From an uncultured Rhodospirillales bacterium (lineage in GTDB: Bacteria; Pseudomonadota; Alphaproteobacteria; ATCC43930; CGMCC-115725), in assembly GCA_903923205.1 (NCBI GenBank), contig CAIXXC010000413.1:6524-70523 (forward strand): a stretch of 64,000 bases of DNA. The letters are read 5' to 3'. Below the pieces are notes generated by a model. The model was not told the origin of the DNA and searched no databases. It worked only from the letters and a program-made list of their open reading frames with translations. Below, in pieces: positions 47,331 to 62,700 of the stretch. Positions within the stretch are counted from its first letter, which is position 1. Each line of letters starts with the position of its first letter. A program made the translations under genes and the position numbers.

Positions 47331-48209
47331 ATGCGGAATTTCAACGAGAATACGATCACCGATGCTGTCATCGAACGGCTCGCTTTCGCCACCTCGCCAC
47401 GCGCCCGCGAAATCAGCCAAGCCCTGGTTCGCCATCTGCATGCCTTCATCCGCGAGGTCCGCCCGACGCAGGACGAATGGATGGCCGGGATCGAATTCCT
47501 GACAAGAACCGGCCATATGTGCACCGACACACGTCAGGAATTTATCCTGCTCTCCGATACGCTCGGCGTCTCGATGCTTGTGGATGCGATCAATCATGCC
47601 CACGCGGAGACCACAACGGAAACAACGGTGCTCGGGCCATTCTATCTCTCCGGCCCGCCCGAGATGCCGCTCGGCACCGATATATCCACGCAAGGCAAGG
47701 GCGATCCAATGATCGTTGAAGGCACCGTCCGCGATTCGACCGGCGCGCCGATCGCTGGCGCCTGGGTTGATACCTGGCAGGCCGATGCCGATGGCGTGTA
47801 CGATGTCCAGCGCACCACCAACGGGGCGCCGGAACTCGATCTGCGCGCCCGGTTCCGGACAGACGCCGAAGGTCAGTTCTGGTTCCGCAGCATTGCCCCG
47901 TGCTACTACCCTGTCCCAGATGATGGCCCGGTCGGCGAAATGCTGAAAGCCCAGGGCCGGCACGCCAATCGACCGGCCCATGTCCACTTCATGATCGGCG
48001 CCCCGGGTTTCGAGACCCTGGTTACCCATTTGTTCATTGCGGACAGCCCTTATATCGACTCCGATGTCGTCTTCGGCGTGAAGGACTCCCTGGTACGATC
48101 GCTTGAAACGCAACCGGCAGGGCTCACGCCCGCAGGCCATCCGGTCGACGCGCCCAGTTCCCTGCTTCGTTATGATTTCGTGCTTGCCGGAAAGAGGCAG
48201 GAGGCCTGA
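47331..48209 (+). CDS. Intradiol ring-cleavage dioxygenase (hydroxyquinol/catechol 1,2-dioxygenase type)
   Basis: The N-terminal helical linker domain (LVRHLHAFIREVRPTQDEWMAGIEFLT) and catalytic core (YYPVPDDGP, PAHVHFMI) match the family. The ATG at 47331 is preferred over the track start. Confidence 0.8.
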   Translation: MRNFNENTITDAVIERLAFATSPRAREISQALVRHLHAFIREVRPTQDEWMAGIEFLTRTGHMCTDTRQEFILLSDTLGVSMLVDAINHAHAETTTETTVLGPFYLSGPPEMPLGTDISTQGKGDPMIVEGTVRDSTGAPIAGAWVDTWQADADGVYDVQRTTNGAPELDLRARFRTDAEGQFWFRSIAPCYYPVPDDGPVGEMLKAQGRHANRPAHVHFMIGAPGFETLVTHLFIADSPYIDSDVVFGVKDSLVRSLETQPAGLTPAGHPVDAPSSLLRYDFVLAGKRQEA

Positions 48210-48210
48210 A

Positions 48211-49443
48211 GTGCCCGGCTCTTTCGACCCGGTCGCAATTGCCCGCGACTTCGAACTGAGATCCCTGCCGCCCGATTTTCATGACGATCCGTATCGCTAT
48301 TACCGGGCGCTGCGCGACCACGCCCCCGTCAAGCCCATGCCCGATGGCTCGGTATTTCTGACCCGATACGCCGATCTTGACCATGTCTACAAGGACCCGA
48401 TCGGGTTCAGCTCCGACAAACGCCAGGAATTCCTGCCGAAGTTCGGCCAGTCGCTGACCTATGAACATCATACCACGAGCCTCGTCTTCAACGACCCGCC
48501 CCTCCACACCCAGGTTCGGCGAATCCTTCAAGGCGCGCTTGGCCCACGCGCAATTGCCGAAATGGAAGATAGCCTCGTCGTCCTGGTCGAGCGGCTGCTC
48601 GACGGGCTTGAGGCCAGGGGCGAAGGCGATCTCATCGAGGATTTCGCATCAGCGATCCCGATCGAGGTCATCGGCAATCTTCTCGGTGTACCGCAGGCCG
48701 ATCGCGGCCCGCTGCGACGCTGGTCGTTGACCATCCTGGGCGCGCTCGAACCCGCAATTTCGCAAGCGGCGCTCGACACCGCCAATGCCGCTATCGCGGA
48801 ATTTCTCGATTATCTTGAAATCCTGGTGGCCGATCGCCGCATCCATCTCGGCAGTCCCGACACAGATGTTCTGTCTCGCCTTATCGTCGGCGAGGCCAAT
48901 GGCGAGAAATTGGGCCACCGTGAATTATTGCAGAACTGTATCTTCCTGCTGAATGCCGGCCACGAAACCACGACGAATCTGATCGGCAACGGCCTTGCGT
49001 TGCTCCTTGATTGGCCGGACGAACGGCGCCGCCTGACGGTCGATATCGACGGGCTTATTCGCCCCGCCATCGACGAGTTCCTGAGGTTCGAAAGCTCCAA
49101 TCAACTTGGCAATCGCCGCGCGATGGCAGATTGCGTCGTTGGCGGCACGTCACTGGCGGCTGGAACCCTGATTACCCTGTGCATCGGTGCCGCCAATCGC
49201 GACCCGGCGCGCTTCCCTGACCCTGATCGGCTTGATATCGGGCGCAATCCCAATCGGCACCTCGCCTTCGCGACGGGGGCACATACCTGCCTCGGCATGA
49301 ACCTCGCCCGTCTGGAAGGCCGGATTGCGATTGCGGGTTTCCTGCGGCGGTTTCCCAACTACGCCTTGCGGGCACCGGCCCAGCGTGGCGGCCGCGTGCG
49401 CTTCCGCGGTTTCACCAGTCTGCCCGTCACGCTGCGGGCATAA
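48211..49443 (+). CDS. Cytochrome P450
   Basis: I-helix AGHETT, ExxR (EFLR) and haem-binding loop FATGAHTCLGMNLAR. GTG at 48211 with a GGAGG SD; 1-nt gap after the dioxygenase gene. Confidence 0.9.
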   Translation: MPGSFDPVAIARDFELRSLPPDFHDDPYRYYRALRDHAPVKPMPDGSVFLTRYADLDHVYKDPIGFSSDKRQEFLPKFGQSLTYEHHTTSLVFNDPPLHTQVRRILQGALGPRAIAEMEDSLVVLVERLLDGLEARGEGDLIEDFASAIPIEVIGNLLGVPQADRGPLRRWSLTILGALEPAISQAALDTANAAIAEFLDYLEILVADRRIHLGSPDTDVLSRLIVGEANGEKLGHRELLQNCIFLLNAGHETTTNLIGNGLALLLDWPDERRRLTVDIDGLIRPAIDEFLRFESSNQLGNRRAMADCVVGGTSLAAGTLITLCIGAANRDPARFPDPDRLDIGRNPNRHLAFATGAHTCLGMNLARLEGRIAIAGFLRRFPNYALRAPAQRGGRVRFRGFTSLPVTLRA

Positions 49444-49451
49444 CGAACCGC

Positions 49452-50948
49452 CTAGACCGCCTGCCAGTGCGAAATACCATCGGCGCTCGCCCTTAGAATG
49501 CCGCCATCCCCGATGGGGGAACGGTCAAGCGAGACCAGTCGCTCGATCGTGTCCTCGTCATCAGCCGGCACCCGCGCCATGGTCCGTCGCCCATCTTGAA
49601 GCAGGGTGAGGACCACACCATGTGCGGGCCGACCGTCCCGATCATAGATCACCGTGAAGGTTTCCAGCGCCGCAGGACCTGTCGTCGCCTCGACGAAGGC
49701 CGGAACCGGGCCGCGTCGGATATCGGCTTCGGCCTGGACAGCACTGTCGACAGGCGCCAGACGATGATCGGCCTGTTCCGCCGACAGGACGATGGCGTGG
49801 TGCTTTGTCACGAACTCCCCCTGGCCATAGACAAGCCCCAATCCGCCGTCGCCGCGAATCCGGCGCGCCATCGCGCAGATCGCATGCGTCATATAATTGT
49901 TGAGGGGCGCCCCAAAGAAGGTGAGGCCACCCGTGACCGTCGGCTGGACATTCTCGTCGAGCCCCAAGGTGCGCCGCGCCATCTTGGGCACGCAGGGAAA
50001 ACAGCTGTAGAGCTCGAGCGCGTCGAATCCCCTGCCAGCGGTCACTCTCAGCGCCGCCTCGAGAACCGCATCCTGAGCGTAGCTCTGGTAGTACTGGTCG
50101 CGATCGAGATAGTCGCGCGGCTCATTCGCGGCGGCGCCACCCCAGAAATAGACCAGGCGAGACTCGGCAATGCCGGCGGTGCGTGCCCGCGCCAAACTGG
50201 TGACGATCACCGCAGCACCCTGGTTCACCGTGGGGTTGGCAACCATCCGTTTCGTGTAGGGCCAGGCGATCAGCCGGTTTTCCGACGTCGGCTCGGTGAT
50301 CTCGGCCGGGCTGAACGAGTGGCGCAACCACGCGTTGGGATTTTCTGCGGCGATCCGGGCGTACTCCGACCACAGCAACCCGGATTCAGCCAGCGCCTCT
50401 ACCGGAGTCTGGCCCCAATAGGCAGCGGAAGCAGCATCGTAGAAGGGGTAGACATTGGTCGGCTGGGTCACACCAAGGCGGGCTGCGAGCGGGTGGAGAA
50501 AATCGTCGCCGCGCAACGGAGGCGGGCCACCGTCGAGTTGCGGTGTCCAGGGCAGCGCGATCCCGGCGCGCTGGGCCTTCGCGACCGTGCTCTGTGCTTC
50601 GGCCCCCACGATCGCCGCGACCGCGCTCTCACCATGGGCAATCCGCAACGCCGCTTCGTGAACAAGCCGCACCGGGCTCTCCCCGCCGATTGGCCCATAG
50701 ACCGCGCGGCGTGGAGCGATGCCGAGGCGGGCGGTCAGTTGTTTGGCTGGATCGGCATAGCGCCAGCTCATCAAGTTGACGATATCGAGCGAATCAATTT
50801 CGCTGATGAGGTTACCGCCGCCATCGTCCTCGGCCAGGCGCAATGCCGCCTGCATCAGCGCCAGCGGCTCGAGCCCGAGGCAGGGGTCGTCTGGGCGGTC
50901 AAGAACGTCGCCGACACCGATGATAACGGGAATGCGGTCTTCAGCCAT
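49452..50948 (-). CDS. Thiolase-like (SCP-x/acetyl-CoA acetyltransferase-like) protein with a C-terminal extension of about 120 aa
   Basis: Thiolase-fold blocks (IIGVGDV, LYSCFPCVP, FGAPLNNY). The extra C-terminal beta-rich segment (ALETFTVIYDRDGRPAHGVVL) resembles OB-fold DUF35-type partners. The Met at 50948 has a GGAG SD. Confidence 0.65.
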   Translation of the reverse strand: MAEDRIPVIIGVGDVLDRPDDPCLGLEPLALMQAALRLAEDDGGGNLISEIDSLDIVNLMSWRYADPAKQLTARLGIAPRRAVYGPIGGESPVRLVHEAALRIAHGESAVAAIVGAEAQSTVAKAQRAGIALPWTPQLDGGPPPLRGDDFLHPLAARLGVTQPTNVYPFYDAASAAYWGQTPVEALAESGLLWSEYARIAAENPNAWLRHSFSPAEITEPTSENRLIAWPYTKRMVANPTVNQGAAVIVTSLARARTAGIAESRLVYFWGGAAANEPRDYLDRDQYYQSYAQDAVLEAALRVTAGRGFDALELYSCFPCVPKMARRTLGLDENVQPTVTGGLTFFGAPLNNYMTHAICAMARRIRGDGGLGLVYGQGEFVTKHHAIVLSAEQADHRLAPVDSAVQAEADIRRGPVPAFVEATTGPAALETFTVIYDRDGRPAHGVVLTLLQDGRRTMARVPADDEDTIERLVSLDRSPIGDGGILRASADGISHWQAV

Positions 50949-51133
50949 GCTTTCCAACTCCTGTGAGGTCGCTTCCCCGCCCAACAAAGAACGAACGGTC
51001 GTCCGCCAGTTTCCACGACCCGGCAATAGAACACCAGAAACACCTGCAACGACGATTTGATCTGGACATTATCACCCGTTCGGGAGGTCAATTGCGGGCA
51101 TGACTTGATTCCCGGAAAGAGGAGGAACCAACC

Positions 51134-51712
51134 TTGGAGCACAAGCCAATCAGCCGTTATCCCGTTCCGGAACTCGGCGACCTGCCGGATGATATCCGTA
51201 CCCGCATTCTTGGAATCCAGGAAAAGCTGGAGTTCGTCCCCAACGTCTTCCTGGCCTTCGCCCGCCGCCCGGACGAGTTCCGCGCATTCGTCGCCTATCA
51301 TGATGCGTTGATGGAGGGTGATCGCGGTCTCTCCAAGGCAGAACGGGAAATGGTTGTCGTCGCCACCTCCGCGATGAACCAGTGCCAGTACTGCGTCGTC
51401 GCCCATGGCGCGATCCTGCGCATCCGGGCCCGGAATCCGTTGCTCGCGGACCAGATCGCCATCAATTATCGCAAAGCCGACATCACGCCGCGGCAAAAGG
51501 CGATGCTGGACTTCGCGATGAAGGTCTCGCGCCAATCCGAAGCAATAGAAGAGGCCGATTACGCGGTCTTAAAGGCCCATGGCTGGAGCGACGAGGATGC
51601 CTGGGATATTGGCGCGATCAGCGCATTTTTCGCGATGTCGAACCGCATGGCGAGCCTGATCACGCTCCGCCCCAACGACGAATTCTATCTCATGGGACGC
51701 GTCAAACGCTAG
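51134..51712 (+). CDS. AhpD-like / carboxymuconolactone decarboxylase-family peroxidase-related protein
   Basis: CxxC-H motif NQCQYCVVAHG and a conserved N-terminus (LGDLPDDIR...FVPNVF). Strong SD GAGGAGG before the TTG start. Confidence 0.75.
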   Translation: MEHKPISRYPVPELGDLPDDIRTRILGIQEKLEFVPNVFLAFARRPDEFRAFVAYHDALMEGDRGLSKAEREMVVVATSAMNQCQYCVVAHGAILRIRARNPLLADQIAINYRKADITPRQKAMLDFAMKVSRQSEAIEEADYAVLKAHGWSDEDAWDIGAISAFFAMSNRMASLITLRPNDEFYLMGRVKR

Positions 51713-51756
51713 TCGTCGCCCTGACAACGACGCGCTCAAGCCAGAAAGATGAAGCA

Positions 51757-52554
51757 ATGTCCGACGATCCATTGAGTGATTTCAAGGCTGCACAGCGGGA
51801 GGGTTGGTCCAGCTTCGCGCCGATCGCTGCCTTTACGACGCCGGCAGCGGCCCATCTCGTCGATTTCGCCGGCATCGCCTCTGGTCAGGTGGTGCTCGAT
51901 GTCGCCTGCGGCACCGGCGTCGTCGCGGTCACGGCGGCACGGCTTGGCGCCCGGTTGAGCGGGCTTGACCTGTCGCCTGCCTTGATCGAGGAGGCGAAAA
52001 ACAACGCGACCCTGCTTGACGCCGATATCGCTTTCCTGACCGGCGATGCCGAAAAACTTCCCTATCCCGATGGGCATTTCGACGCCGTGCTCAGCCAATT
52101 CGGCCACATGTTTGCGCCTCGACCAGACGTCGTGATCGCGGAGATGCTGCGCGTGCTCAAGCCCGGTGGGCGTGTTGCGTTCTCGACCTGGCCACCGGAA
52201 CTGGCGATCGGACGGATTTTTCGGCTGGTCGAGCGCTACCTGCCAATTCCGGCGGGCGTGCCGTCCCCAACCGCCTGGGGCGAGACTGCGGTCATACGCG
52301 AACGGCTGGGCGACCGGGTTACGGAGTTGGAGTTCAAGACCGCCGAGATGGTCGTGCCCACCCTCAGCACCCGGCACTACCTCTCTCTTATGGCCGCGAC
52401 GGCCGCGCCAATCCGGAAGGTTGCGGAGCAATTCGCTGATCGACCGGAACAACTTGAGACATTCCGCAACGAGTTTGAAGCAATCGCTGCAACCTATTTC
52501 AATGGCAATCAGATCCACCAAACCTTTCAAATGACCCGAGGCCGCAAGAGTTAG
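51757..52554 (+). CDS. Class I SAM-dependent methyltransferase
   Basis: Motif I VLDVACGTGVVA and motif post-I/II (DAEKLPYPDGHFDAV). The ATG at 51757 is chosen; the upstream part of the track ORF overlaps the previous gene. Confidence 0.8.
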   Translation: MSDDPLSDFKAAQREGWSSFAPIAAFTTPAAAHLVDFAGIASGQVVLDVACGTGVVAVTAARLGARLSGLDLSPALIEEAKNNATLLDADIAFLTGDAEKLPYPDGHFDAVLSQFGHMFAPRPDVVIAEMLRVLKPGGRVAFSTWPPELAIGRIFRLVERYLPIPAGVPSPTAWGETAVIRERLGDRVTELEFKTAEMVVPTLSTRHYLSLMAATAAPIRKVAEQFADRPEQLETFRNEFEAIAATYFNGNQIHQTFQMTRGRKS

Positions 52555-52909
52555 AGAAATCTGAGACGCATCCGCGACGCCATGAACACCGTAGAGTCGA
52601 GACGTGGTGCGGCACGGGGATTGCGCTGAAGATGGGGGTTGGAGAAACAGGAAGATGAGATTTTTAAGTTGCCGCTTTGGTGAACTTACAGCAGAATACG
52701 TCACTCAATTAATCACTAAACTGTCCTGAAGGTAGCGCGATAACAACGCCGCAGCGGCTGGGAAAAGAGATGCTGCCATCAGTCCACGGCAGTGTCTTCA
52801 CGGGAACTAGAACGGACGGTCGGAAGTTGATCATCTGGGCGCCGGGGGGGCGCGGATCCCGAATGATCGTCATCCGGGCAAAAACAAAATTTTGGGAAGG
52901 ACCCTAGAG

Positions 52910-54283
52910 ATGCGGATCAGAAAATACGATTTCAATTATGGCCGACGTGAACTGCTCGCCCGCGGTGGCGCTATGGTGGGTGCGGGCCTGCTCGCCCCGA
53001 TGTGGCCGCTCGTGGCCAAGGGTGCCGACATCTCCAAGGCCTATCCCGATGAGTTGCTCTCGGTCGATGCCTATACGAAGGGTGCCATCAAAACCGGCGA
53101 CACGGTTGACGCCAATAACGTCGATCACGTCAAGAACCTGCTGACGCCGGTACAGTACATGCAGGTCAAGACGATGGGCCGCCGCTTCAAGATCGTCCCG
53201 ACGACGACGGATGTCTCGAAGCTGTTCCCGCACGCTTACCTCGACGCGACGCTGCGCAATACCGGCAAGAGCAAGCTGGATGCCGATGGCAATGTCTGGA
53301 CGACCGATGGCAAGCCCTGGATCGGTGGACTGCCCTTCCCGGACCCCAAGAGCGCGCTCGAAGCGTTCGCGAACCTGACGCTGAGTTGGGGTCGTCACGA
53401 TAATGCCGTCTACGCGATCCAGGATCACGACCTGGATGAATACGGTAACGTCAATTACGCCTATGAATTCGCCTGGATCGAGGAGCAGGTTGCCTGCCGC
53501 CTGGGCGGTATCGGTCCCTACGCCGGTTCCGAGCATGCCGATCGCCTGCGCTACCAGACAGTGCTTTTCACCGGGCCTTCGGACGTAAAGGGGACGGCCT
53601 ATCTGAACAGCTGGTATTATGATCAGCGCAAATATCCGGATCTGATCGGGTATGTCCCGGCCTTCAAGAGGGTACGCAAATTCCCGACGAACCAGCGTTT
53701 CGAGCCGCTCGTCGCGGGCATGACGCTTTATCTGTCGGACGCCTGGGCCGCCGGCGATCCGGCGCTGACATGGGGCAATTACCGCGTCGTCGGCCGCACC
53801 TCGATGCTTTCCGGCGTTTCCGACAATTGGCACGGCGATCTCGACAACTGGGTAGCCCCGACCCATGGCGGGCCGAAGGGTCTGACCTTCTTCGAGTACA
53901 ACATGCAGATGGTGCCGGAGGCGATCATCGTCGAGGCCGAGCCAACCGGCTACCCGCGCGCGCCCGTCGGCAAAAAGCGTGTTTGGCTCGACACCCGGAA
54001 TCTCCAGGTCGTCGGCTACGAGACCTATGATCGTCGCGGCGCCTCGCTCAAGAGCTTCGAGCCGTCCTGGGGTCAGCACGTCAAGGGCGATCTGATCGAG
54101 ACTGAGAATGACGGCTCCCCCGTATGGACCTGGAGCCAGGTGATGAGCCATGACGTCCAGACCAACCGGATGACGCGCTTCACCCAGACCAAGGAAATCG
54201 ACGGCATCAAGTCGTCGCGAAACACCGAAGGTTTGTACGAAAAATATCTGACAGCCCAGGCGATCGGCCGCCTCGGTACCTGA
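52910..54283 (+). CDS. DUF1329-family (LolA-like, outer-membrane lipoprotein-sorting-like) periplasmic protein with a Tat-like signal
   Basis: RRELLARGGAMVGAGLLAP signal. The blocks NVDHVKNLLTPVQY, YLDATLRNTGKSKL and GGLPFPDPKSALEA resemble DUF1329 proteins as I recall them. Confidence 0.55.
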   Translation: MRIRKYDFNYGRRELLARGGAMVGAGLLAPMWPLVAKGADISKAYPDELLSVDAYTKGAIKTGDTVDANNVDHVKNLLTPVQYMQVKTMGRRFKIVPTTTDVSKLFPHAYLDATLRNTGKSKLDADGNVWTTDGKPWIGGLPFPDPKSALEAFANLTLSWGRHDNAVYAIQDHDLDEYGNVNYAYEFAWIEEQVACRLGGIGPYAGSEHADRLRYQTVLFTGPSDVKGTAYLNSWYYDQRKYPDLIGYVPAFKRVRKFPTNQRFEPLVAGMTLYLSDAWAAGDPALTWGNYRVVGRTSMLSGVSDNWHGDLDNWVAPTHGGPKGLTFFEYNMQMVPEAIIVEAEPTGYPRAPVGKKRVWLDTRNLQVVGYETYDRRGASLKSFEPSWGQHVKGDLIETENDGSPVWTWSQVMSHDVQTNRMTRFTQTKEIDGIKSSRNTEGLYEKYLTAQAIGRLGT

Positions 54284-54375
54284 ATGCGATCAGGCCCGGA
54301 CGATCCCTACCGTCCAAGCCTGATGTGCTCGCAGAACATCGACCCCGCACCAGACCGGTGCGGGGTCGATCCGTT

Positions 54376-56031
54376 TCAGGCGACGGCCTGCGCCTTGGTC
54401 ATGGGCTCCTGGATGAAGCCCTCGTAGCCCTTGGCGACGACTTCATCGCAGACCTGCTTGTACCGCTGGAAGCCGCCGAGATAGACGAGGAACACGCGCG
54501 CCTTGCCCGGAACATTGGCGCCGAGATACCAGGACTCGGCGGCCGGCAGCAGGGTCTCGTCCGCGATCTCGCGCACATGACTGACCCATTTCACCTCAGC
54601 TTCCCGGGTCGGCTCGATCGCAGCGATCTTGTTGCTGTTCATATGGGCGATGCAGTCGGCGATCCACTCGCAATGCTGCTCAATGCTGAGCGGCATGTTG
54701 AACAGCGCCGAGGGGCTGAGCGGCCCGGTCACGGTATAGAAGTTGGGGAAACCGTGGCTCATCAGGCCAAGATAGGTATGCGGTCCGGCGACCCAATGAT
54801 CCTGTAGCCGCTTGCCGTTGCGACCACGGACATTGAGCTTGAACAGCGACCCGGTGAAGGCATCGAAGCCGGTGGCGTAGATCAGGGCGTCGAGCTCGTA
54901 TTCGCCGCCGGCGGTCCTGATCCCCTTTTCTGTCAGCCGTTCGATCGGCTCGGCCTTGATATCGACCAGGCCGACATTGTCGCGATTATAGGTCTCGAAA
55001 TAGTTGGTCTCGCAAGGCTGGCGCTTGGTGCCGAAGACCACGCCCGGCTTTGGCACCAGCTTGTCCGCAAGCTTGGGGTCCTTGATCTTGGCGCGGATCT
55101 TCTCGCGGACGAAATTACCGGCGGTCTCGTTGGCCTTGAGATCAAGCAGGATATCGTTATAGGCACCCAGCCAGATGCTGAAACCGCCATCGTTCCAGCA
55201 TGCCTCGTAATGCGCCCGGCGTTGCTCCGGCGTGTCGGCCAGCGCCGAGGGACGGGTGCGATGGAACTCGACGCCCGCGAAGGAGCCCCAGGCCCCGCGA
55301 CGGTACTCGGTGTAATTCGCCTTGACCTTGCCCTGTTCCTCAAGCGTGAGGGGTTCGTTCATCAAGGGCGCAGCAAAACCGGGGGTACGCTGGAACACGG
55401 TGAGGTGGCCGGCGGTCTCGGCAACGACCGGGATCACCTGCATTCCCGTGGCGCCGGTACCGATGATGCCGACCTTCTTGCCCTTGAAGTCATAGCCTTC
55501 CTTCGGCCATTTGTGGGTCAGCAGGACATCGCCCTTGAAGCTCTCGGCGCCCGGGAATACCGGCGTCGCGGCGGTCGACAGCACGCCGACGCCGGAGATC
55601 AGATGGCGCGCCGTGACGACCTTGCCGTCATGGGTGGTGACGCGCCAGAACGCGCCGGCCTCGTCGTAATCGGCGGCGGCGACCCAGGTGCTGAAACGAA
55701 TGTCCTTCTTGAGGTCGAACTTCTTGGCGACGAATTCGAGGTAGGACAGGATTTCCGGCTGGGCCGCATATTTCTCGGACCATACCCATTCCTGCTGCAA
55801 TTCCTCGGAAAAGGAATACGAATAATCCATGCTCGGGATATCGCAACGCGCGCCAGGATAGCGGTTCCAGTACCATGTGCCGCCGACGCCATCGCCACCC
55901 TCGATCACGCTCGCTTTCAGCCCCTGCTTGTCACGCAGCAAATGAAGCATGTAGAGCCCGGCGAAACCGGCACCGACGATGACGGCGTCGAGTTCGGGGG
56001 TGGCGGTCTTGGCGATATCTGTCGTGCCCAT
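54376..56031 (-). CDS. Baeyer-Villiger (type I flavin) monooxygenase
   Basis: FAD motif GAGFAG, BVMO fingerprint FKGDVLLTHKWP (FxGxxxHxxxWP) and NADP motif GTGATG. Confidence 0.87.
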   Translation of the reverse strand: MGTTDIAKTATPELDAVIVGAGFAGLYMLHLLRDKQGLKASVIEGGDGVGGTWYWNRYPGARCDIPSMDYSYSFSEELQQEWVWSEKYAAQPEILSYLEFVAKKFDLKKDIRFSTWVAAADYDEAGAFWRVTTHDGKVVTARHLISGVGVLSTAATPVFPGAESFKGDVLLTHKWPKEGYDFKGKKVGIIGTGATGMQVIPVVAETAGHLTVFQRTPGFAAPLMNEPLTLEEQGKVKANYTEYRRGAWGSFAGVEFHRTRPSALADTPEQRRAHYEACWNDGGFSIWLGAYNDILLDLKANETAGNFVREKIRAKIKDPKLADKLVPKPGVVFGTKRQPCETNYFETYNRDNVGLVDIKAEPIERLTEKGIRTAGGEYELDALIYATGFDAFTGSLFKLNVRGRNGKRLQDHWVAGPHTYLGLMSHGFPNFYTVTGPLSPSALFNMPLSIEQHCEWIADCIAHMNSNKIAAIEPTREAEVKWVSHVREIADETLLPAAESWYLGANVPGKARVFLVYLGGFQRYKQVCDEVVAKGYEGFIQEPMTKAQAVA

Positions 56032-56289
56032 GAAGGGTCTCCCTGATCCCGTTTATTATCGATTACAATTAGCCGAACAGGCCGTCTTCTGATGCCCTAA
56101 TACCATTCCAAAATTGCTGGGAACATCCTCCTCTTTCAAATCCGTATAACTACCTACCGAGACAGGCTTCGACGGCGGTCCTGCGGGTGGCACAAAATCG
56201 CATCAGTAGATGTTTTGTTGCTCACGTGAAAAAGTGAGACGCGTGGTCATCGGCAACCGATCGAACCAAAAAATAGAGGGAGAGAAAAC

Positions 56290-57159
56290 ATGACCGAATG
56301 GGATGGACGCGGACTTGTCTCGACGGATTGGCTGGCGACGCATCTGGGCGATGCGGACTTGCGGTTGTACGATACCACGGTCCGCCTCGTGCCGAAGGTG
56401 CCGGGCCCCTATGAGATCGTCAGCGGTCGCGCGGCCTACGACGGGGCACATATTCCCGGCGCAGGCTTCCTGGATCTGATGACCGAGCTTTCCGACCCCG
56501 CCTCGGATGTCCCCTTCATGATGCCCGCGGTTGATCGACTGGCCGCTGCGCTGGGTAGCGCGGGGATCGGACCCGATAGCCGTGTCGTACTCTATTCCTG
56601 GCCGACCCCGATGTGGGCAACCAGACTTTGGTGGATGCTGCGCTCCTGCGGCTTCGATAATGTCGCGGTGCTCGACGGCGGCCTCGACAAGTGGCGCGCC
56701 GAAGGTCGGGCGATGGAAAGCGGGACCCGGAGCTATCCGGCGACACAGTTGAGCCTGTCCGCGCGGCCCGGCGCCTGGGCCGACAAGGAGGATGTTCTCG
56801 CCGCAATCGGCGATGACTCTGTCTGCACGATCAACGCGCTTTCTCCCGCGACCTTTCAGGGCACCGCCGAGTCGAGCTATGGCCGCAAAGGGCACATCAC
56901 CGGCAGCCTAAACGTCCCTTACGAGGCCTTGTTAAAGGCCGATGGCAGTTTTCGTCCTGATGCCGAGTTGCGACCCCTCTTCGCCGCAGCCGGGGCCTTT
57001 CAGCGCTCCCGCGTCATCTGTTACTGCGGCGGCGGTATATCCGCGACGATGGATGCGCTCGTGTTGACCCGCCTCGGCCATCCCCACATTGCCATCTACG
57101 ACGGCTCCATGTGGGAATGGGCGCGCGATCCATCGCTGCCGATGGCAACCGGCGTCTGA
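56290..57159 (+). CDS. Two-domain rhodanese-family sulfurtransferase
   Basis: Tandem rhodanese architecture. The active-site loop CYCGGGISAT is in the C-terminal domain, and the N-terminus has GHIPGAGFLD. Confidence 0.8.
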   Translation: MTEWDGRGLVSTDWLATHLGDADLRLYDTTVRLVPKVPGPYEIVSGRAAYDGAHIPGAGFLDLMTELSDPASDVPFMMPAVDRLAAALGSAGIGPDSRVVLYSWPTPMWATRLWWMLRSCGFDNVAVLDGGLDKWRAEGRAMESGTRSYPATQLSLSARPGAWADKEDVLAAIGDDSVCTINALSPATFQGTAESSYGRKGHITGSLNVPYEALLKADGSFRPDAELRPLFAAAGAFQRSRVICYCGGGISATMDALVLTRLGHPHIAIYDGSMWEWARDPSLPMATGV

Positions 57160-57166
57160 CGCAACC

Positions 57167-58240
57167 TCAGGGCGTGATCGCAACCTTCAGGACGCCGTCA
57201 CGCTGGTTGGCGAAAAGATCATAGGCGGCCTCGATATCGTCGAGCTTGAACCGATGGGTGACCAGCGGCTTCAGATCGATACGGCCGCCTGCGATCACCG
57301 ACATCAGGCGACGCATCCGTTCCTTGCCACCGGGGCAAAGGGTGGTCACGATTTTCAGATCCGCGAGACCCGCGGCGAAAGCGTCGAGGGGAATGCTAAG
57401 GTCAGTCGAATAGACACCAAGGCTCGATAATGTGCCGCCGGGACGCAACACCCGGAGCGCGCCTTCAAAGGTCGCCTGGGAACCCAGCGCCTCGATCGCG
57501 ACATCGACGCCGCGACCATCGGTCAGCCGCATGATCTCAGCCACCGGATCGACCTTGGTGAAATCAATGACATGGTCCGCGCCCATCTGACGCGCCACGG
57601 CAGCGCGTGCCGGAACGGACTCGACGGCAATGATCTTGGTGGCGCCCGAAAGCTTAGCCCCGGCGGTGGCGCAGAGCCCGATTGGTCCCTGGGCAAACAC
57701 CGCGACGGTATCGCCGATCCGGACATTGCCGCTCTCGGCGCCACTGAACCCGGTCGACATGATATCGGGGCACATCAGTACCTGTTCATCCGTAAGGTCG
57801 TCCGGCACGGCGGCAAGATTGACCATCGCGTCGGGAACCCGGACATATTCGGCCTGACAGCCATCAATCGCATTGCCGAATTTCCAGCCACCGAAAGCCT
57901 GGAAGCCATATTTGGCGTTCGGCCCGTCCTGACTGCCATGGCCACACAGGCAGGCTGCGCTGTGACCGCTCTGGCTGATCGCGCCGGAGATGACGCGCTG
58001 CCCCTCATGAAACCCCTTGACCTCCGAGCCCAGCTTTTCGATCACGCCGACGGGCTCATGACCAATGGTCAGTCCCTTGCGAACGGGGTATTCGCCCTTC
58101 AGGATGTGAACGTCCGTCCCGCAGATGGTGGTCGTCGTGATCCTGATCAGTGCGTCGAGCGGACCGATATCCGGGATCGGTTTGTCCTGAAGGACGATGC
58201 GATGGGGTTCGACGAAAACGGCGGCTTTCATCATGGGCAT
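57167..58240 (-). CDS. Zn-dependent alcohol dehydrogenase, secondary-alcohol (TbADH/CbADH-like) type
   Basis: Zn ligands (CGTDVH, GHEPVG) and GWKFGNAIDG...AEY. The Rossmann region GPIGLCATAGAKLSGA closely parallels NADP-dependent secondary ADHs. Confidence 0.85.
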   Translation of the reverse strand: MPMMKAAVFVEPHRIVLQDKPIPDIGPLDALIRITTTTICGTDVHILKGEYPVRKGLTIGHEPVGVIEKLGSEVKGFHEGQRVISGAISQSGHSAACLCGHGSQDGPNAKYGFQAFGGWKFGNAIDGCQAEYVRVPDAMVNLAAVPDDLTDEQVLMCPDIMSTGFSGAESGNVRIGDTVAVFAQGPIGLCATAGAKLSGATKIIAVESVPARAAVARQMGADHVIDFTKVDPVAEIMRLTDGRGVDVAIEALGSQATFEGALRVLRPGGTLSSLGVYSTDLSIPLDAFAAGLADLKIVTTLCPGGKERMRRLMSVIAGGRIDLKPLVTHRFKLDDIEAAYDLFANQRDGVLKVAITP

Positions 58241-58367: not shown

Positions 58368-59000
58368 TCACGGCGCCCATTGATTGGCGATACACTCGCG
58401 GATCGCCGCCTCGAATTCAGGCTCCAGATACGGCGCTATAACATCGAAGAGTTGGTTGATACCCGCCGTCATGTCACTGCGCTGGATGTCGGTTATGCCG
58501 GAAATTTGCAGAAAACCGATCCAGTTCGACCATATCAGCCAAGTTCCAAGGGCGAGCGAGGCGATACCTGCAGCGCCCCTGGGATGGGTTAGATTGCCGT
58601 CCTCAGCGATGCCGGCAGCAATGCTGCCGAGCTCAGCGATGCCCCAGCGCTGGAGCCCCTGATAGCGGGCAGCCAGCACAGGGTCCCGCCGAAGTAGCCC
58701 AAGCGTGCCGTTAAAGAAAAATCGGTAGCGCCAGGCAAGATCGAAGGTCCGAAGGTAAAACGCGGCGATCCGTTCAGGCGGTAGAGGCCTGACAACATCG
58801 CGCTGGAGTACATCGTGGAATTCATCCTCCAGGGCGTCGAACAGGGTGTGGACGATCTCCTCGCGATTGGAGAAATGGTAATAGAGATTGCCGGGGCTGA
58901 CACCGGTTTCGGTGGCAATCCGGTTGGTGCCCACGGCTTCGGCGCCGAGTTCGTTCATCAGACGCAATGTCGTCTCGATGATCCGCTCCCTGTTCCCCAT
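58368..59000 (-). CDS. TetR/AcrR-family transcriptional regulator
   Basis: N-terminal HTH IIETTLRLMNELGAEAVGTNRIATETGVSPGNLYYHF. Divergent from the 59264 operon. Confidence 0.9.
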   Translation of the reverse strand: MGNRERIIETTLRLMNELGAEAVGTNRIATETGVSPGNLYYHFSNREEIVHTLFDALEDEFHDVLQRDVVRPLPPERIAAFYLRTFDLAWRYRFFFNGTLGLLRRDPVLAARYQGLQRWGIAELGSIAAGIAEDGNLTHPRGAAGIASLALGTWLIWSNWIGFLQISGITDIQRSDMTAGINQLFDVIAPYLEPEFEAAIRECIANQWAP

Positions 59001-59166
59001 CTATGCGCCTCCTCCACGCTGCTCGCCGACCGCGCCCCAAGACCCGACAGAACCGTCGGAAGCTTGCCGATGCGTTATAACTACAGGAGTTTGGCAGAAA
59101 ATCCCGCGATCAGATTGCGACTCTCTGTAGTTTGAGCCAATCGTTCGCAACCACGATTGATAGCCG

Positions 59167-59207
59167 TTGACAATGCGACATGATCGCTCTAGAGTTTTTA
59201 CTCTAGA
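59167..59207 (+). promoter_or_regulatory. Sigma-70-like promoter (TTGACA-17 nt-TAGAGT) overlapped by the perfect palindromic operator TCTAGAGT-tttt-ACTCTAGA
   Basis: -35 at 59167-59172 and -10 at 59190-59195. Palindrome arms at 59188-59195 and 59200-59207. The site lies 57 nt upstream of the 59264 start, in the classic TetR-operator position. Confidence 0.45.
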
Positions 59208-59263
59208 TAGAAGTTCGGGCTTTTCCAGTCCCGATAGAAACAAGCTCTGGGCGAGGACGCGAC

Positions 59264-60202
59264 ATGACCACGACAAAGCCGTTTAACGGACTGTTTCGTC
59301 GGCAAGAAGACGACAATACTGCGCGCACCGATTGCCCGCATGATATTCTCGTGCGCCCCTTTAGCTTCGACTTTCCTGACGATCTGAACCCGGTTTGGTC
59401 GCCCGGACACGTGGTACGATCCCACCTCTTCAACGGCTTTTCTTTGACGATGCCGTACCTTGAGCCGTACCTCATCCGAACGATGCGGGAAGTCTCGTCC
59501 CAGATCACTGATCCGGGGCTGTTGCAGGATATTCGTGGTTTCAATGGCCAGGAGGCCCGCCATTACGAATGCCACCGCCGCCTGAACGACTTGCTGAAAC
59601 GCAATGGTTATCCGGAATTGGCGGCGGTTGAGGGAAAACTAGCCGATTCATATGCCCGCCTGGGAAAGCGCAGCCTTCGCACCCGCCTTGCCTACAATGC
59701 GGGCTTCGAAAGCATGACCAACGGATTCACGAACTGGTTCGTCGCCAAGCGGTTGCAACTATTCGGCGGCGCCTGCCCCTATGTATCGTCGTTCTGGATC
59801 ATGCACATGATCGAAGAAGCCGAACACAAGACGGTCGCGTTCGATGCCTATATGGCCTACTCAGGCGCCTATCTGCCGCGAGCGCTCGGCGTCCTCCATG
59901 GCTCGTTCCACGTCCTCGGCTTCGGCTTTGTTGCCCTGTTCCGTGCCCTGCGAAAGGATGGGAAGCTCTCCGACGCGGGCACGCTCGCCGAGATCGTACG
60001 GGAAACCGCCAGCCTGGTCTGGAACGTCGGTCCCTACCTGCTCCGCGCCATGATGCCCGGTTATGACCCACGCCAGGAAACGGATCCGCAGTGGTCAAAA
60101 GACTGGGTGTCGGGCTATGCCCGCCTGCCGGCAAATGCGCCGCTGCCCTTGATCGACACTCGGAGTACAGAGATGCCCGTGCCCTTCGCGGCGCCGGTTT
60201 GA
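59264..60202 (+). CDS. COG3687/PF10118-type predicted metal-dependent protein (annotated 'hydrolase' family)
   Basis: Family-like blocks FSLTMPYLEPYLIRTMR, GQEARHYECH and HMIEEAEHKTVAFD. Contains two ExxH motifs plus additional conserved Glu residues. Confidence 0.55.
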   Translation: MTTTKPFNGLFRRQEDDNTARTDCPHDILVRPFSFDFPDDLNPVWSPGHVVRSHLFNGFSLTMPYLEPYLIRTMREVSSQITDPGLLQDIRGFNGQEARHYECHRRLNDLLKRNGYPELAAVEGKLADSYARLGKRSLRTRLAYNAGFESMTNGFTNWFVAKRLQLFGGACPYVSSFWIMHMIEEAEHKTVAFDAYMAYSGAYLPRALGVLHGSFHVLGFGFVALFRALRKDGKLSDAGTLAEIVRETASLVWNVGPYLLRAMMPGYDPRQETDPQWSKDWVSGYARLPANAPLPLIDTRSTEMPVPFAAPV

Positions 60203-60246
60203 AGACAAGTAGACAACTGCCCGCAAACACCCTTGAACAAGGAAAG

Positions 60247-60726
60247 ATGATGGATCAATTGCAACGGATCATGATCGGCAATGGCTTGCTGGTCATTCTC
60301 GCCGCGATGTTCGCCGGCTTCATGCTCATGTTTCATTTGATCGGCGGGATCGAGATCTGGCCGGGAACGATCTTGCCAATCCACATATACGGCACGAGCG
60401 ACGGCTGGGTTCGGGCTCACTCGGGTGGCACGATGAACGGGATACTCGTGATCGTGGTCGCGCTGGCCTTGCCCAAACTGAACCTAAGCCCGCTGATGCA
60501 GAAGCTGACGGCATACGGTTTCCTATATGTAGCCTGGTCATTCACACTGTTCTACTGGCTTGGCAATGCTGCGGGCAATCGAGGGCTCACCCTCGGCGAT
60601 AGTCAGCTTGGCCATACAGATCTGATCAGCGTGATCGCCTTCCTTCCCGGCTTGCCGAGCGTGTTCATCGTGGTCGTCCTTCTGGTGATCGCGGCCAGAA
60701 GCGTGCTGAGTGCAAATAAGGCGTAA
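60247..60726 (+). CDS. Styrene-oxide isomerase (StyC)-like 4-TM membrane protein
   Basis: 159 aa with 4 TM helices. The blocks GNGLLVI, LIGGIEIWPG, GWVRAHSGGTMNG and NRGLTLG parallel StyC as I recall it. Counting from the ATG at 60247, His58, Asn64 and Tyr103 fall at the positions reported as haem ligand and catalytic residues of SOI. SD AAGGAAAG precedes the start. Confidence 0.6.
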   Translation: MMDQLQRIMIGNGLLVILAAMFAGFMLMFHLIGGIEIWPGTILPIHIYGTSDGWVRAHSGGTMNGILVIVVALALPKLNLSPLMQKLTAYGFLYVAWSFTLFYWLGNAAGNRGLTLGDSQLGHTDLISVIAFLPGLPSVFIVVVLLVIAARSVLSANKA

Positions 60727-60794
60727 CCCATTGGGCGAGGCGGAGGGTCGATGAACAGGGTGGCTTGCGCTGTCCCATGAGGGCGCGCTAGCCA

Positions 60795-60995
60795 CTATTC
60801 TGGGGTCATTGGTTCCTTCGCAACCCGATCGGGCTCACGGCCGAGATCAGTCGAGCTTTCGATTTCTGCCAATTTTTCGACAAGCCGTTGAAGCGTTGTC
60901 GAACTAGCGAAGCCCGAGGCCTTCATGAAGGCAATCTCCTTTCTCAGAGCCGCACGCATCAATGCCCAGTCCTCGATCGCTTTCGGGACCTCCAT
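60795..60995 (-). CDS. Hypothetical small helical protein (66 aa)
   Basis: ORF only. It lies at the distal end of the minus-strand gene string in the AT-richer patch. No recognisable motif. Confidence 0.3.
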   Translation of the reverse strand: MEVPKAIEDWALMRAALRKEIAFMKASGFASSTTLQRLVEKLAEIESSTDLGREPDRVAKEPMTPE

Positions 60996-61179
60996 CGTTA
61001 CACCTCGCCTCTATGCTTCAACTGGCTATGCGGCGACCACGTGCCTGAAGATGGGCTCCAGGGGTCGTTGGCCAGACGATCATGGCGGGCGTCCTCTGCT
61101 GCTGACTGCAGTTCGACCGGTACGGACATCGCACTTGATATCGATACCTCAGGGGGTGATGACAGGCGCATCGCGGCGA

Positions 61180-61647
61180 TCAGTTATTCGCCGTATTGCC
61201 GGGGACATCAGATGACCTCCTCCATGACGTCCTGACACCGTGCGTCTCGAAAAAGACATCGATTTTCGCCTGCACCTCGCTGTGTAACGGCAAGGCCATG
61301 ATGCCCCGCCGCTCGAACAGGGAGTCGATCTTAGCTTGAAGATTTGTTTCCCGCGGCAAGCCTGCCCTGGGTTGAACAGGAGACGGACGCGAAACGGGCA
61401 GCGATACGGAGATCACAACCCCGCCACGATTTTGGCCCATGCGCGCTATCTGAGAGGTTGTCGCAGGAAGAGGGATGTCCTCCCCATTCTTGATCATCGC
61501 CTTGACGTGACGGAGAAGCATTTCCTGGGCGATCCTTCTGGCGCCGCTGTGCCTGCCGGTCGCGCCAATACACATCGGAAAATCAGGGAAAGTGATTTGA
61601 AAACCGCGCGCCCCCAAGGGTCGAAGCAACCCGATATATCTCATCAT
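61180..61647 (-). CDS. HicB-family antitoxin-like protein with an atypical C-terminus
   Basis: The N-terminal MRYIGLL...GFQITFPDFPMCIGATG...AQEMLLRHVKAMIKNGEDIPLP matches the HicB/UPF0150 pattern (FPDFPGC). The C-terminus has a duplicated xQAKIDxxFExxG segment instead of a clean RHH. Confidence 0.65.
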   Translation of the reverse strand: MMRYIGLLRPLGARGFQITFPDFPMCIGATGRHSGARRIAQEMLLRHVKAMIKNGEDIPLPATTSQIARMGQNRGGVVISVSLPVSRPSPVQPRAGLPRETNLQAKIDSLFERRGIMALPLHSEVQAKIDVFFETHGVRTSWRRSSDVPGNTANN

Positions 61648-61663
61648 GTGCCGTGACCCTTTC

Positions 61664-62236
61664 CTACCGGGAGATCTGATTGCGCAAATTCGGGTCGCTC
61701 AGCATCTTGTCGCGGACATCCTGGAGGACGCGGCGGATTTCCGCCTCATACTCGAATTTCATGTCCTTGAGCGATGCCTCGAAGGTTTTGCGGATGCCGA
61801 AATACATCATCATGACCAACTGGCCCGTATCGCACGACACGTCGGCGTCAAGGTCGATTACCTTGCACATCGCATCAGCGATCTCTCCAATCAGCGGCGC
61901 TTCGACCATGGCGGCAAGGCCGCGGACGTCATTCGCCAGATCAAAGACCTTTTCTTTGATCTCTGGCGTAATCGGGTTGATCGATTTCATCAGCAATACG
62001 CCGAGATCATCGACCATCTGCCCGAATTCCTGACGACCCATTGTGATGATGCCGACCGATGCCTTTTCGGCCCGCTTGGCGGCGACATCCACATCGACCC
62101 CTTTTGAGCGGCCGAGAGGGAGCTTTGCATGCGGAGGAATTGGAACCGTCGTCACCTTCGGTGTGGCGACCGGCGCTGGATTCTGGATCATATTAAAGTT
62201 CAGCCTCAAAGCCTCGTGGGCCGGCGCCGCAATCAT
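61664..62236 (-). CDS. Hypothetical protein (190 aa), translationally coupled to the upstream response regulator
   Basis: The start ATG overlaps the response-regulator stop (ATGA at 62233-62236). The C-terminal 120 aa or so is predicted helical. No HPt (HxxKG), CheZ or CheC/X motif was found. Confidence 0.45.
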   Translation of the reverse strand: MIAAPAHEALRLNFNMIQNPAPVATPKVTTVPIPPHAKLPLGRSKGVDVDVAAKRAEKASVGIITMGRQEFGQMVDDLGVLLMKSINPITPEIKEKVFDLANDVRGLAAMVEAPLIGEIADAMCKVIDLDADVSCDTGQLVMMMYFGIRKTFEASLKDMKFEYEAEIRRVLQDVRDKMLSDPNLRNQISR

Positions 62237-62700
62237 TGCAATAAGAATGCGTGGTTCCGGGGTGGCCCAAAATAATCACCGACAATTTCGAAGGGTCTTT
62301 CATCGGCCAGGGACGTGGCAAATTTCATCATAAAAGCCTGCGCACTCGTCGGCTTTGTAATGTACGTGTTGACGCCCGCCCGCAAAGCCGCATGCACACG
62401 ATGCTGCTCATTATATGCGGTCACCATCATCACGTTCAAAAAGCGGTTCGGGCTCTCATCGGCGTGCCGTATCAGGCGCAGCAGCTCCAAACCTGAGCCA
62501 TCCGGAAGCTTCCAATCGCAGATCACGACATGGGGCTGAAACTCGCGGATTGTCGTCCAGCTTTTTTTCGCGCTGCTGACACAGCGTATGTGACGAATCC
62601 CCAGCTCGTTCAAAAAATTCCGGATAAGATCGCGCCAGAAAAGCATTCCATCAACGATTACAACCCTTATGTTCGAGTAATCATGGGTCTGCATGTTCAT
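62233..62700 (-). CDS. Single-domain CheY-like response regulator
   Basis: Receiver signature: VVIVDG, phospho-acceptor VICDWKLPDGSG, MVTAY (Thr), YITKP (Lys). AGGAG SD lies 7 nt upstream of the ATG at 62700. Confidence 0.85.
   Translation of the reverse strand: MNMQTHDYSNIRVVIVDGMLFWRDLIRNFLNELGIRHIRCVSSAKKSWTTIREFQPHVVICDWKLPDGSGLELLRLIRHADESPNRFLNVMMVTAYNEQHRVHAALRAGVNTYITKPTSAQAFMMKFATSLADERPFEIVGDYFGPPRNHAFLLQ

Follow-up and report, generated by a model that had tools for sequence, protein, structure and literature searches.

A conserved gene pair encoding a PF10118 protein and a styrene oxide isomerase-like membrane protein in uncultured bacteria

Styrene oxide isomerase (SOI, StyC) is, to our knowledge, the only known enzyme of its fold, and it is used in biocatalysis for the anti-Markovnikov functionalisation of alkenes. 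In phenylacetate catabolism (PaaABCE/PaaG), the reactive epoxide made by a ferritin-fold di-iron epoxidase is removed by a coupled isomerase; this isomerase, PaaG, is a soluble enzyme of the crotonase fold, and the system needs the reductase PaaE. Here we analysed a locus in a 64-kb stretch of DNA (the window) from an uncultured Rhodospirillales bacterium (contig CAIXXC010000413.1), in which a gene for a PF10118 (COG3687) protein is followed, after 44 nt, by a gene for an SOI-like membrane protein. In the cryo-EM structure of the Pseudomonas SOI, a ferric haem b is bound via H58, while Y103 and N64 position the epoxide oxygen, and the N99A and Y103A mutations abolish the activity, whereas N64A and D95A impair it (PMC11374702). 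In the Rhodococcus enzyme RoSOI1, H57 is essential and R111 holds a haem propionate, while the D94A variant is active (PMC12502698).

We compared the membrane protein of the window with these enzymes by sequence and by structure. It matched the NCBIfam StyC model NF045734 (E 2.1e-37, 128.4 bits) and the PDB entries 8PNU (E 7.1e-27) and 30tw (E 1.4e-26), and showed 36-40% identity to the characterised SOIs; the Pfam family PF26512 'SOI' is also precomputed for its homologues. The AlphaFold2 (AF2) model (pLDDT 85) consists of four long helices, at residues 2-32, 51-78, 82-108 and 136-158, and a Foldseek search returned 8pnu_A as the sole significant PDB match (E 3.3e-10, TM-score 0.88-0.90, rmsd 1.7 Å). 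An earlier sequence-only reading of the window had aligned the protein with StyC without gaps over about the first 65 residues and had placed His58, Asn64 and Tyr103, counted from the first Met, at the SOI positions. Indeed, the alignment with 8PNU is ungapped from residue 2 to ~135, and the three residues align with H58, N64 and Y103. The coincidence of the residue numbers is partly fortuitous, since public gene calls start at the second ATG (60250) and give 158 aa, but the alignment itself is not; for the same reason, an exact look-up of the 159-aa protein found no record. Judged by sequence and model, the protein is a true SOI homologue, sharing with the enzymes of Pseudomonas sp. VLB120 (PDB 8PNU/8PNV) and Rhodococcus opacus 1CP (RoSOI1) the fold, His58 as the predicted axial ligand of haem b, Arg112 as the residue that binds the propionate, and Asn64 and Tyr103, which position the oxygen in SOI.

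The window protein and nine close relatives were then aligned with four canonical StyC proteins, so that the two groups could be compared. E36, P39, G40, G53, W54, H58, N64, W97, F102, Y103, N107 and R112 were found to be invariant in both. In contrast, the canonical motif LDGWSN reads YVAWSF in the new clade, with Val or Ile in place of Asp95, Ala in place of Gly96 and Phe in place of Asn99, while Thr20 is replaced by Ala, Ser or Val; the window protein carries Ala20, Val95 and Phe99. Thr20, Asp95 and Asn99 are all residues of the SOI network. The active-site match proposed earlier stands for His58, Asn64 and Tyr103 but does not extend to positions 95 and 99, where the changes had gone unnoticed. 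With Val95 and Phe99, the pocket is predicted to be more hydrophobic than that of SOI. The sequence comparison thus assigns the protein to an SOI-family clade distinct from canonical StyC and not to the StyC orthologues, and function-level membership in StyC failed because of the NCBIfam cut-off, the position of Asn99 and the operon context. At 90% clustering, the window protein has 524 relatives and the VLB120 StyC 335, a rough comparison by which the new clade equals or exceeds canonical StyC in size in this protein collection, and is not a minor offshoot. The top 120 of the 524 are all at least 69% identical, and many of the 335 relatives of the VLB120 StyC are named and come from cultured strains.

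The gene pair was found to be conserved far beyond the window. One genome per GTDB species was scanned with peptide patterns of the new SOI clade, which yielded 98 relatives, and the best 80 of these 98 were kept for the locus counts. Of the 80 loci, 69 carry a gene for a PF10118 homologue (48-86% identical) on the same strand, immediately before the SOI-like gene, and two of the 11 exceptions are at contig ends, with no room upstream. The gap between the two genes has a median of 34 nt and is at most 97 nt in 67 pairs, five pairs overlap, and the identities of the two proteins to their counterparts in the window correlate with each other (r = 0.69). A survey for such pairs had been set beforehand as a refutation test, and the pairing has held up in it. 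No conserved third gene, be it a regulator, a reductase or a dehydrogenase, was present beside the pair, and the genes next to it represent 84 Pfam families on the upstream side and 75 on the downstream side. The PF10118 and SOI-like genes form an autonomous, widely conserved two-gene module. All 80 loci are from metagenome-assembled genomes (MAGs), mostly of Gammaproteobacteria or Pseudomonadales, and further of Rhodospirillales, Rhodobiaceae, Parvibaculales, Myxococcota ('Deltaproteobacteria'), Binatia, one Limisphaerales and one Methylibium. Unlike canonical StyC, the new clade occurs almost entirely in uncultured bacteria, of freshwater, marine, groundwater and soil habitats.

The company of the SOI-like gene also bears on whether it is simply styC. 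Neither StyA nor StyB was detected by tblastn in the 80 loci, and a StyD-like aldehyde dehydrogenase was detected in two; in the window, the same search found no homologue of StyA, StyB or StyD, as the sequence-only reading had stated. By comparison, four canonical StyC loci encode StyA and a flavin reductase in all four cases and an aldehyde dehydrogenase in three, but PF10118 in none. It is hardly credible, given these results, that the protein is an ordinary StyC orthologue in a remnant or variant of the styrene catabolic pathway, even though it shows the above identity to characterised SOIs and the JGI annotation labels some members of the clade 'styrene-oxide isomerase': it scores below the NCBI equivalog cut-off, belongs to a separate clade with its own invariant motif, and has its own conserved partner. 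We found no paper on the pairing of a PF10118 gene with an SOI-like gene, which had been presented as undescribed, nor on the function of PF10118/COG3687/IPR016516.

The closest of the surveyed loci, L002, is from a Rhodospirillales lake MAG and shows the same gene order as the window, namely an alcohol dehydrogenase (ADH) gene, the TetR gene, the PF10118 gene and the SOI-like gene. Several lake-metagenome contigs encode a PF10118 protein identical to that of the window, and the longest of them extends the shared order to the rhodanese gene upstream and the HicB-like gene downstream. Among plasmids, a megablast search with the locus gave no match, and the sole tblastn matches were distant paralogues of PF10118 (27-30% identity) and canonical StyC (37-40%). 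Two open reading frames (ORFs) that appeared to be natural fusions of the pair genes (476 aa, L029 5050-6480; 623 aa, L025 4609-6480) were rejected, as translation revealed out-of-frame read-through in high-GC DNA; such spurious fusions call for caution in mining with simple ORF finders. Separately, three pair-bearing MAGs (L017, L021 and L030) are labelled Klebsiella pneumoniae or Klebsiella sp. and come from environmental assemblies. Their pairs resemble the versions in environmental proteobacterial MAGs, and the taxonomic labels look unreliable.

We next turned to the PF10118 protein, for which PF10118 was the only Pfam match (E 1.6e-54). The family is large, with 2,093 clusters at 50% identity (whole-library HMMER search, E <= 0.001). 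The sequence-only reading had pointed out the motifs YLEPY, QEARH, FESM and EEAEH, which are present at residues 65-69, 96-100, 148-151 and 184-188, respectively, and the Glu and His residues in them proved to be invariant when 68 full-length members (25-55% identity) were aligned. The alignment has exactly nine invariant columns, E67, E97, H100, H104, E149, H181, E184, E185 and H188, and all nine residues lie on the predicted helices 50-78, 84-113, 138-161 and 172-187. The AF2 model is all-helical (pLDDT 90.3), and the protein is predicted to be a soluble or peripherally membrane-bound helical bundle. The ligand-type pattern is formed by E67, E97-x2-H100, E149 and H181-x3-E185-x2-H188, and thus reads E…ExxH…E…HxxxExxH, where the classical di-iron carboxylate signature is E…ExxH…E…ExxH. 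The extra His in H181-x3-E185-x2-H188 fits the ligand arrangement of AurF/CmlI. The invariant residues, together with the model, make a di-metal, O2-activating site likely and a ferritin fold probable.

Weak similarities point in the same direction. When the 68 members were scanned individually against Pfam, AurF was matched by eight (best E 2.1e-4) and Rubrerythrin by seven (best E 4.3e-4), all below the Pfam cut-offs, and single members matched COQ7, Ferritin-like and Ferritin_2. The other recurrent weak matches were HXXEE (three) and DUF4436 (two), both of unknown function, and the rest were single and unrelated. One of the AurF alignments spans residues 71-193, the stretch expected to hold the ligand helices, at 15.7 bits against a cut-off of 29.6. 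In the Foldseek search, the top 30 matches, none of them significant, were almost all ribonucleotide reductase (RNR) R2, R2lox and CmlI (E 0.1-1, TM-score 0.41-0.49), with a few TenA/PqqC haem-oxygenase-like folds mixed in; a sequence search of the PDB with the protein and the family profile gave chance matches only, and no related solved structure. These data suggest that PF10118 belongs to the AurF/R2-type di-metal superfamily, and the earlier view of the protein as ferritin-type and di-iron-like rather than hydrolytic agrees with the invariant residues and the weak Pfam and Foldseek matches. The family shares the invariant pattern on four long predicted helices with AurF/CmlI (PF11583) and R2/R2lox, but it has the additional invariant residues H104 and E184 and no significant sequence or structure match to AurF/CmlI. 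Furthermore, the close relatives of the window protein carry a C-terminal tail of their own, and we know of no haem membrane protein partner of AurF or CmlI, in contrast to PF10118.

These features argue against the database annotation. If the PF10118 protein were a true metal-dependent hydrolase that acts together with the isomerase, for instance on an ester, a lactone or an epoxide, this would agree with its name and with the frequent Baeyer-Villiger monooxygenase (BVMO) genes nearby, since the ester products of BVMOs need a hydrolase. However, the name is a prediction only, on a family for which no paper was found, and inspection of the sequence revealed none of the hydrolase motifs HExxH, HxHxDH and HD. 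Furthermore, no hydrolase appeared among the sequence or fold matches of the protein, the secondary Pfam and fold matches were read as going only to ferritin-like families, and the four long helices with their five invariant Glu and four invariant His constitute a di-metal carboxylate, O2-activating signature. We consider a hydrolase very improbable, and the protein is probably misnamed as a 'metal-dependent hydrolase'.

The protein has two further elements outside the invariant core, a hydrophobic helix at residues 208-226 (LGVLHGSFHVLGFGFVALF; Kyte-Doolittle 19-residue mean 1.68) and a C-terminal tail, LPLxDTxxPxMPVPF, within residues 288-310. The tail is kept in the closest relatives (at least 44% identity) but is divergent or absent in most of the wider PF10118 family. 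From their sequences, both elements could serve in docking to a membrane or a partner. As for the rest of the family, a distant paralogue (28% identical) on the Acinetobacter sp. TAC-1 plasmid NZ_CP118893.1 (L081, 1962-7529) lies near a cluster of AraC, 2Fe-2S ferredoxin, P450 and FAD-oxidoreductase genes and is itself followed by a TetR gene, an arrangement that resembles a CYP153-type alkane hydroxylase cluster. This paralogue recurs on many Acinetobacter plasmids, with identical match statistics, and A. baumannii chromosomes carry up to eight PF10118 copies. There are hints here that the whole PF10118 family is tied to hydrocarbon or lipid oxidation.

On the basis of the sequences and models, we tentatively propose, at a confidence somewhat short of even, that the pair is a module of two enzymes, the first of which oxidises a hydrophobic substrate while the second rearranges the product. 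In this scheme, the di-iron PF10118 enzyme would use O2 to oxidise a hydrophobic, membrane-partitioned substrate, the simplest assumption being that it epoxidises a C=C bond, and the SOI-like protein, with its ferric haem as the Lewis acid, would rearrange the product to an aldehyde or ketone by a Meinwald-type shift. The carbonyl product would then be processed by general enzymes, for instance the BVMO or the secondary-alcohol dehydrogenase encoded nearby, while in this lineage the divergent TetR would repress the pair at a palindrome over the -10 hexamer until a ligand releases it. The proposed logic is shared with styABCD, in which a single transcription unit with a dedicated regulator contains an oxygenase gene and, immediately after it, an SOI-family gene. 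However, the oxygenase of the window would be a putative di-iron protein and not a two-component flavoprotein, the unit contains no aldehyde dehydrogenase, and the regulator is a TetR and not StyS/StyR, LysR or AraC. Unlike styC, moreover, the SOI-like gene is never beside styA or styB in the surveyed loci, and the substrate is probably not styrene. In comparison with the phenylacetate system, no PaaE-like reductase gene is conserved with the pair, and the PF10118 family has no detectable homology to PaaA when aligned with the single E. coli sequence. A more specific version of the proposal, in which the module is a widespread flavin-independent route from C=C bonds of hydrophobic non-aromatics (long-chain alkenes, terpenoids, unsaturated lipids) to carbonyls, with an AurF-like di-iron epoxidase physically coupled to a membrane haem-b Lewis-acid isomerase, seems to us possible but doubtful.

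Several observations weigh against this proposal. On the side of the SOI-like protein, the score lies under the NCBI StyC equivalog cut-off (128.4 versus 150 bits), and Asn99, whose change to Ala is fatal to SOI, is Phe, with Asp95 replaced by Val. On the side of the PF10118 protein, the links to ferritin-like families are each below significance when taken alone (Foldseek E >= 0.1, TM-score < 0.5), and hhalign of the family with single E. coli sequences gave no match to NrdB (probability 0.2%) or PaaA (probability 0.8%), a comparison that is uninformative with single sequences. AurF-type enzymes, moreover, are N-oxygenases and not epoxidases. Furthermore, ~9 loci have the SOI-like gene without PF10118 (among them L008, L016, L039, L040, L057, L064, L072 and L078), and the genes upstream of it in such loci are mutually unrelated (ChrR-type cupin, TonB receptor, aldehyde dehydrogenase, glutathione S-transferase, cyclase and ChsH2-like). 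The pair has no conserved reductase or ferredoxin beside it, Fer2 (2Fe-2S) being present in three of 62 upstream neighbours, so that the oxygenase would need a generic electron donor. Finally, a stand-alone role in detoxification or in the modification of lipids would agree with the variable gene neighbourhood just as well as a catabolic step does.

The lack of a conserved reductase gene can also be read differently, with the SOI-like protein anchoring the di-iron protein in the membrane or passing electrons to it through haem b (from quinol, for example), and the two forming a joint membrane oxidase or oxygenase for a lipid or quinone-like substrate. The replacement of Asn99, an essential residue of SOI, would be compatible with such a role, as would the strict gene order and tight spacing of two genes whose products diverge in step, and the C-terminal tail and hydrophobic helix of the PF10118 protein, which could dock to a membrane partner. 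SOI itself has been proposed elsewhere as the anchor of a pathway complex (PMC12502698). On the other hand, His58 is the sole invariant His of the SOI-like protein, which implies a five-coordinate haem with an open site, an arrangement that suits catalysis over electron transfer (PMC11374702), and the distal Asn64 and Tyr103 are invariant although pure electron transfer does not require them. We regard the anchor or conduit function as unlikely.

The order of the two steps of the proposed oxidation and rearrangement could also be reversed. The SOI-like isomerase would then act first, and its epoxide substrate would come from another source, either abiotic or enzymatic (a P450 or some other oxygenase); the di-iron protein would oxidise or deformylate the resulting aldehyde, thus taking the place of StyD and not that of StyA/B. 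Ferritin-fold di-iron enzymes that act on aldehydes do exist, such as the cyanobacterial aldehyde-deformylating oxygenase (ADO). Canonical operons also pair StyC with an aldehyde-removing enzyme, of which this module has none, and the P450 and other monooxygenase genes that are often nearby could supply epoxides. However, the closest family signal of PF10118 is to AurF/CmlI and not to ADO, and the missing conserved electron donor is a problem for this order too. The PF10118-first gene order would mirror styA-styB-styC if genes and pathway are colinear, which is weak evidence. The reversed order is, in our estimation, distinctly unlikely.

We also investigated the regulatory region of the pair, a divergent intergenic region of 263 bp between tetR and the PF10118 gene. 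A consensus scan identified the promoter TTGACA-17-TAGAGT, with 10 of 12 consensus matches, and a perfect palindrome, which occurs once in the window (0.01 expected by chance). The sequence-only reading had correctly noted both the TTGACA hexamer and the palindrome, but it had placed the palindrome over the -35 hexamer, whereas it covers the -10 hexamer and the likely start region. The TetR protein matches TetR_N (E 2.9e-12) and the C-terminal domain PF13972 (E 1.6e-21), so that the helix-turn-helix, the ligand domain and a palindromic site over a divergent promoter, as in a TetR-family system, are all found. In L002, a TetR homologue (85% identical) is encoded at the same position, and the promoter, as read from the L002 sequence, has the same geometry (TGGACA-17-TAGAGT). 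Furthermore, 19 of the 20 palindrome positions are retained there while the surrounding intergenic sequence has diverged, which supports a real operator, and the palindrome is probably the TetR operator. Within 58900-60900, a range that takes in the 44 nt between the pair genes, no terminator was predicted, and no Rfam family was matched within 58900-61200. The claim of a TetR-controlled operon thus gains support from L002; as a general feature of the pair, however, it fails, since TetR-family genes lie directly upstream in only two of 62 other loci. A homologue of the window's TetR was found in L002 only among the surveyed loci, and TetR control of the pair appears to be confined to this lineage. 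As a side observation, a second perfect inverted repeat, CAATCGT-N8-ACGATTG at 59138-59159, lies just 5' of the -35 hexamer; it is absent from the L002 intergenic region, and may be a chance occurrence or a lineage-specific site.

The features of the locus and its surroundings are listed in Table 1. The genes at 48103-58240 constitute a neighbourhood of ketone, secondary-alcohol and hydrophobic-substrate oxidation. The BVMO has phenylacetone monooxygenase as its best PDB match (E 3.9e-183), and steroid monooxygenases are also similar. The ADH matches Pfam ADH_N and ADH_zinc_N, and its best PDB matches are NADP-dependent isopropanol and secondary-alcohol dehydrogenases (E 2e-64); in L002, the corresponding place is taken by a 95% identical gene, the gene is found there in lake contigs as well, and the ADH possibly belongs to the same regulon as the pair. 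The ADH neighbourhood of the window is not conserved beside the pair in the other loci. Within ~6 kb of the pair, the most frequent neighbour is a member of the BVMO cluster, in 15 of 81 loci (the window included), followed by an ABC-transporter ATPase cluster (8 loci), luciferase-like monooxygenases (7 and 4), short-chain dehydrogenases/reductases (7), P450 (6), CoA-transferase III (6) and glutathione S-transferase (5). The oxidative enzymes that recur here, and those encoded in the window, count in favour of the proposed oxidation of a hydrophobic substrate. The order of the minus-strand genes downstream of the pair (60795-62700) is repeated in lake-metagenome contigs.

Table 1. Features of the gene pair and its surroundings in the window
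Feature	Position	Strand	Evidence or remark
P450 gene	48103-49443		Upstream of module
Thiolase-like protein gene	49452-51026		Upstream of module
Methyltransferase gene	51382-52554		Upstream of module
DUF1329/LolA-like lipoprotein gene	52892-54283		Upstream of module
Type I BVMO gene, phenylacetone/steroid monooxygenase (PAMO/STMO)-like	54376-56031	-	2.3 kb beyond tetR
Rhodanese gene	56290-57159		Between BVMO and ADH genes
NADP-type secondary-alcohol dehydrogenase (ADH) gene	57167-58240	-	3' of tetR, gap 127 nt
TetR-family repressor gene, 210 aa	58368-59000	-	Divergent from gene pair; ORF and Pfam
Predicted sigma-70-type promoter of the pair	59167-59195	+	TTGACA 59167-59172, 17-nt spacer, TAGAGT 59190-59195
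Putative TetR operator, perfect 8+8 palindrome TCTAGAGT-TTTT-ACTCTAGA	59188-59207	no strand	Inverted repeat, 100% complementary
PF10118/COG3687 gene, 312 aa, annotated 'metal-dependent hydrolase'	59264-60202	+	Pfam, E 1.6e-54
SOI (StyC)-family four-transmembrane (4-TM) protein gene, 159 aa	60247-60726	+	NCBIfam, PDB, AF2 model
66-aa ORF of unknown function	within 60795-62700	-	Downstream of pair
HicB-like antitoxin gene	61180-61647	-	Without obvious HicA partner
190-aa ORF	within 60795-62700	-	Without Pfam match
Single-domain response regulator gene	62233-62700	-	Downstream of pair

The SOI papers that we found treat the enzyme only within styrene catabolism, and the new clade adds a second context with a different fixed partner. 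The partner belongs to a large family (~2,000 clusters at 50% identity) for which we found neither a structure nor a paper on function, and whose name probably misleads. The pair thus gives a concrete two-protein hypothesis together with a predicted inducible promoter and operator, and the new clade is a source of SOI variants with an altered pocket that is predicted to be more hydrophobic. If the route from alkenes to carbonyls is true, the module would represent a natural counterpart of the StyA/B-StyC cascade that does not depend on flavin, and would provide the first function for the large PF10118 family.

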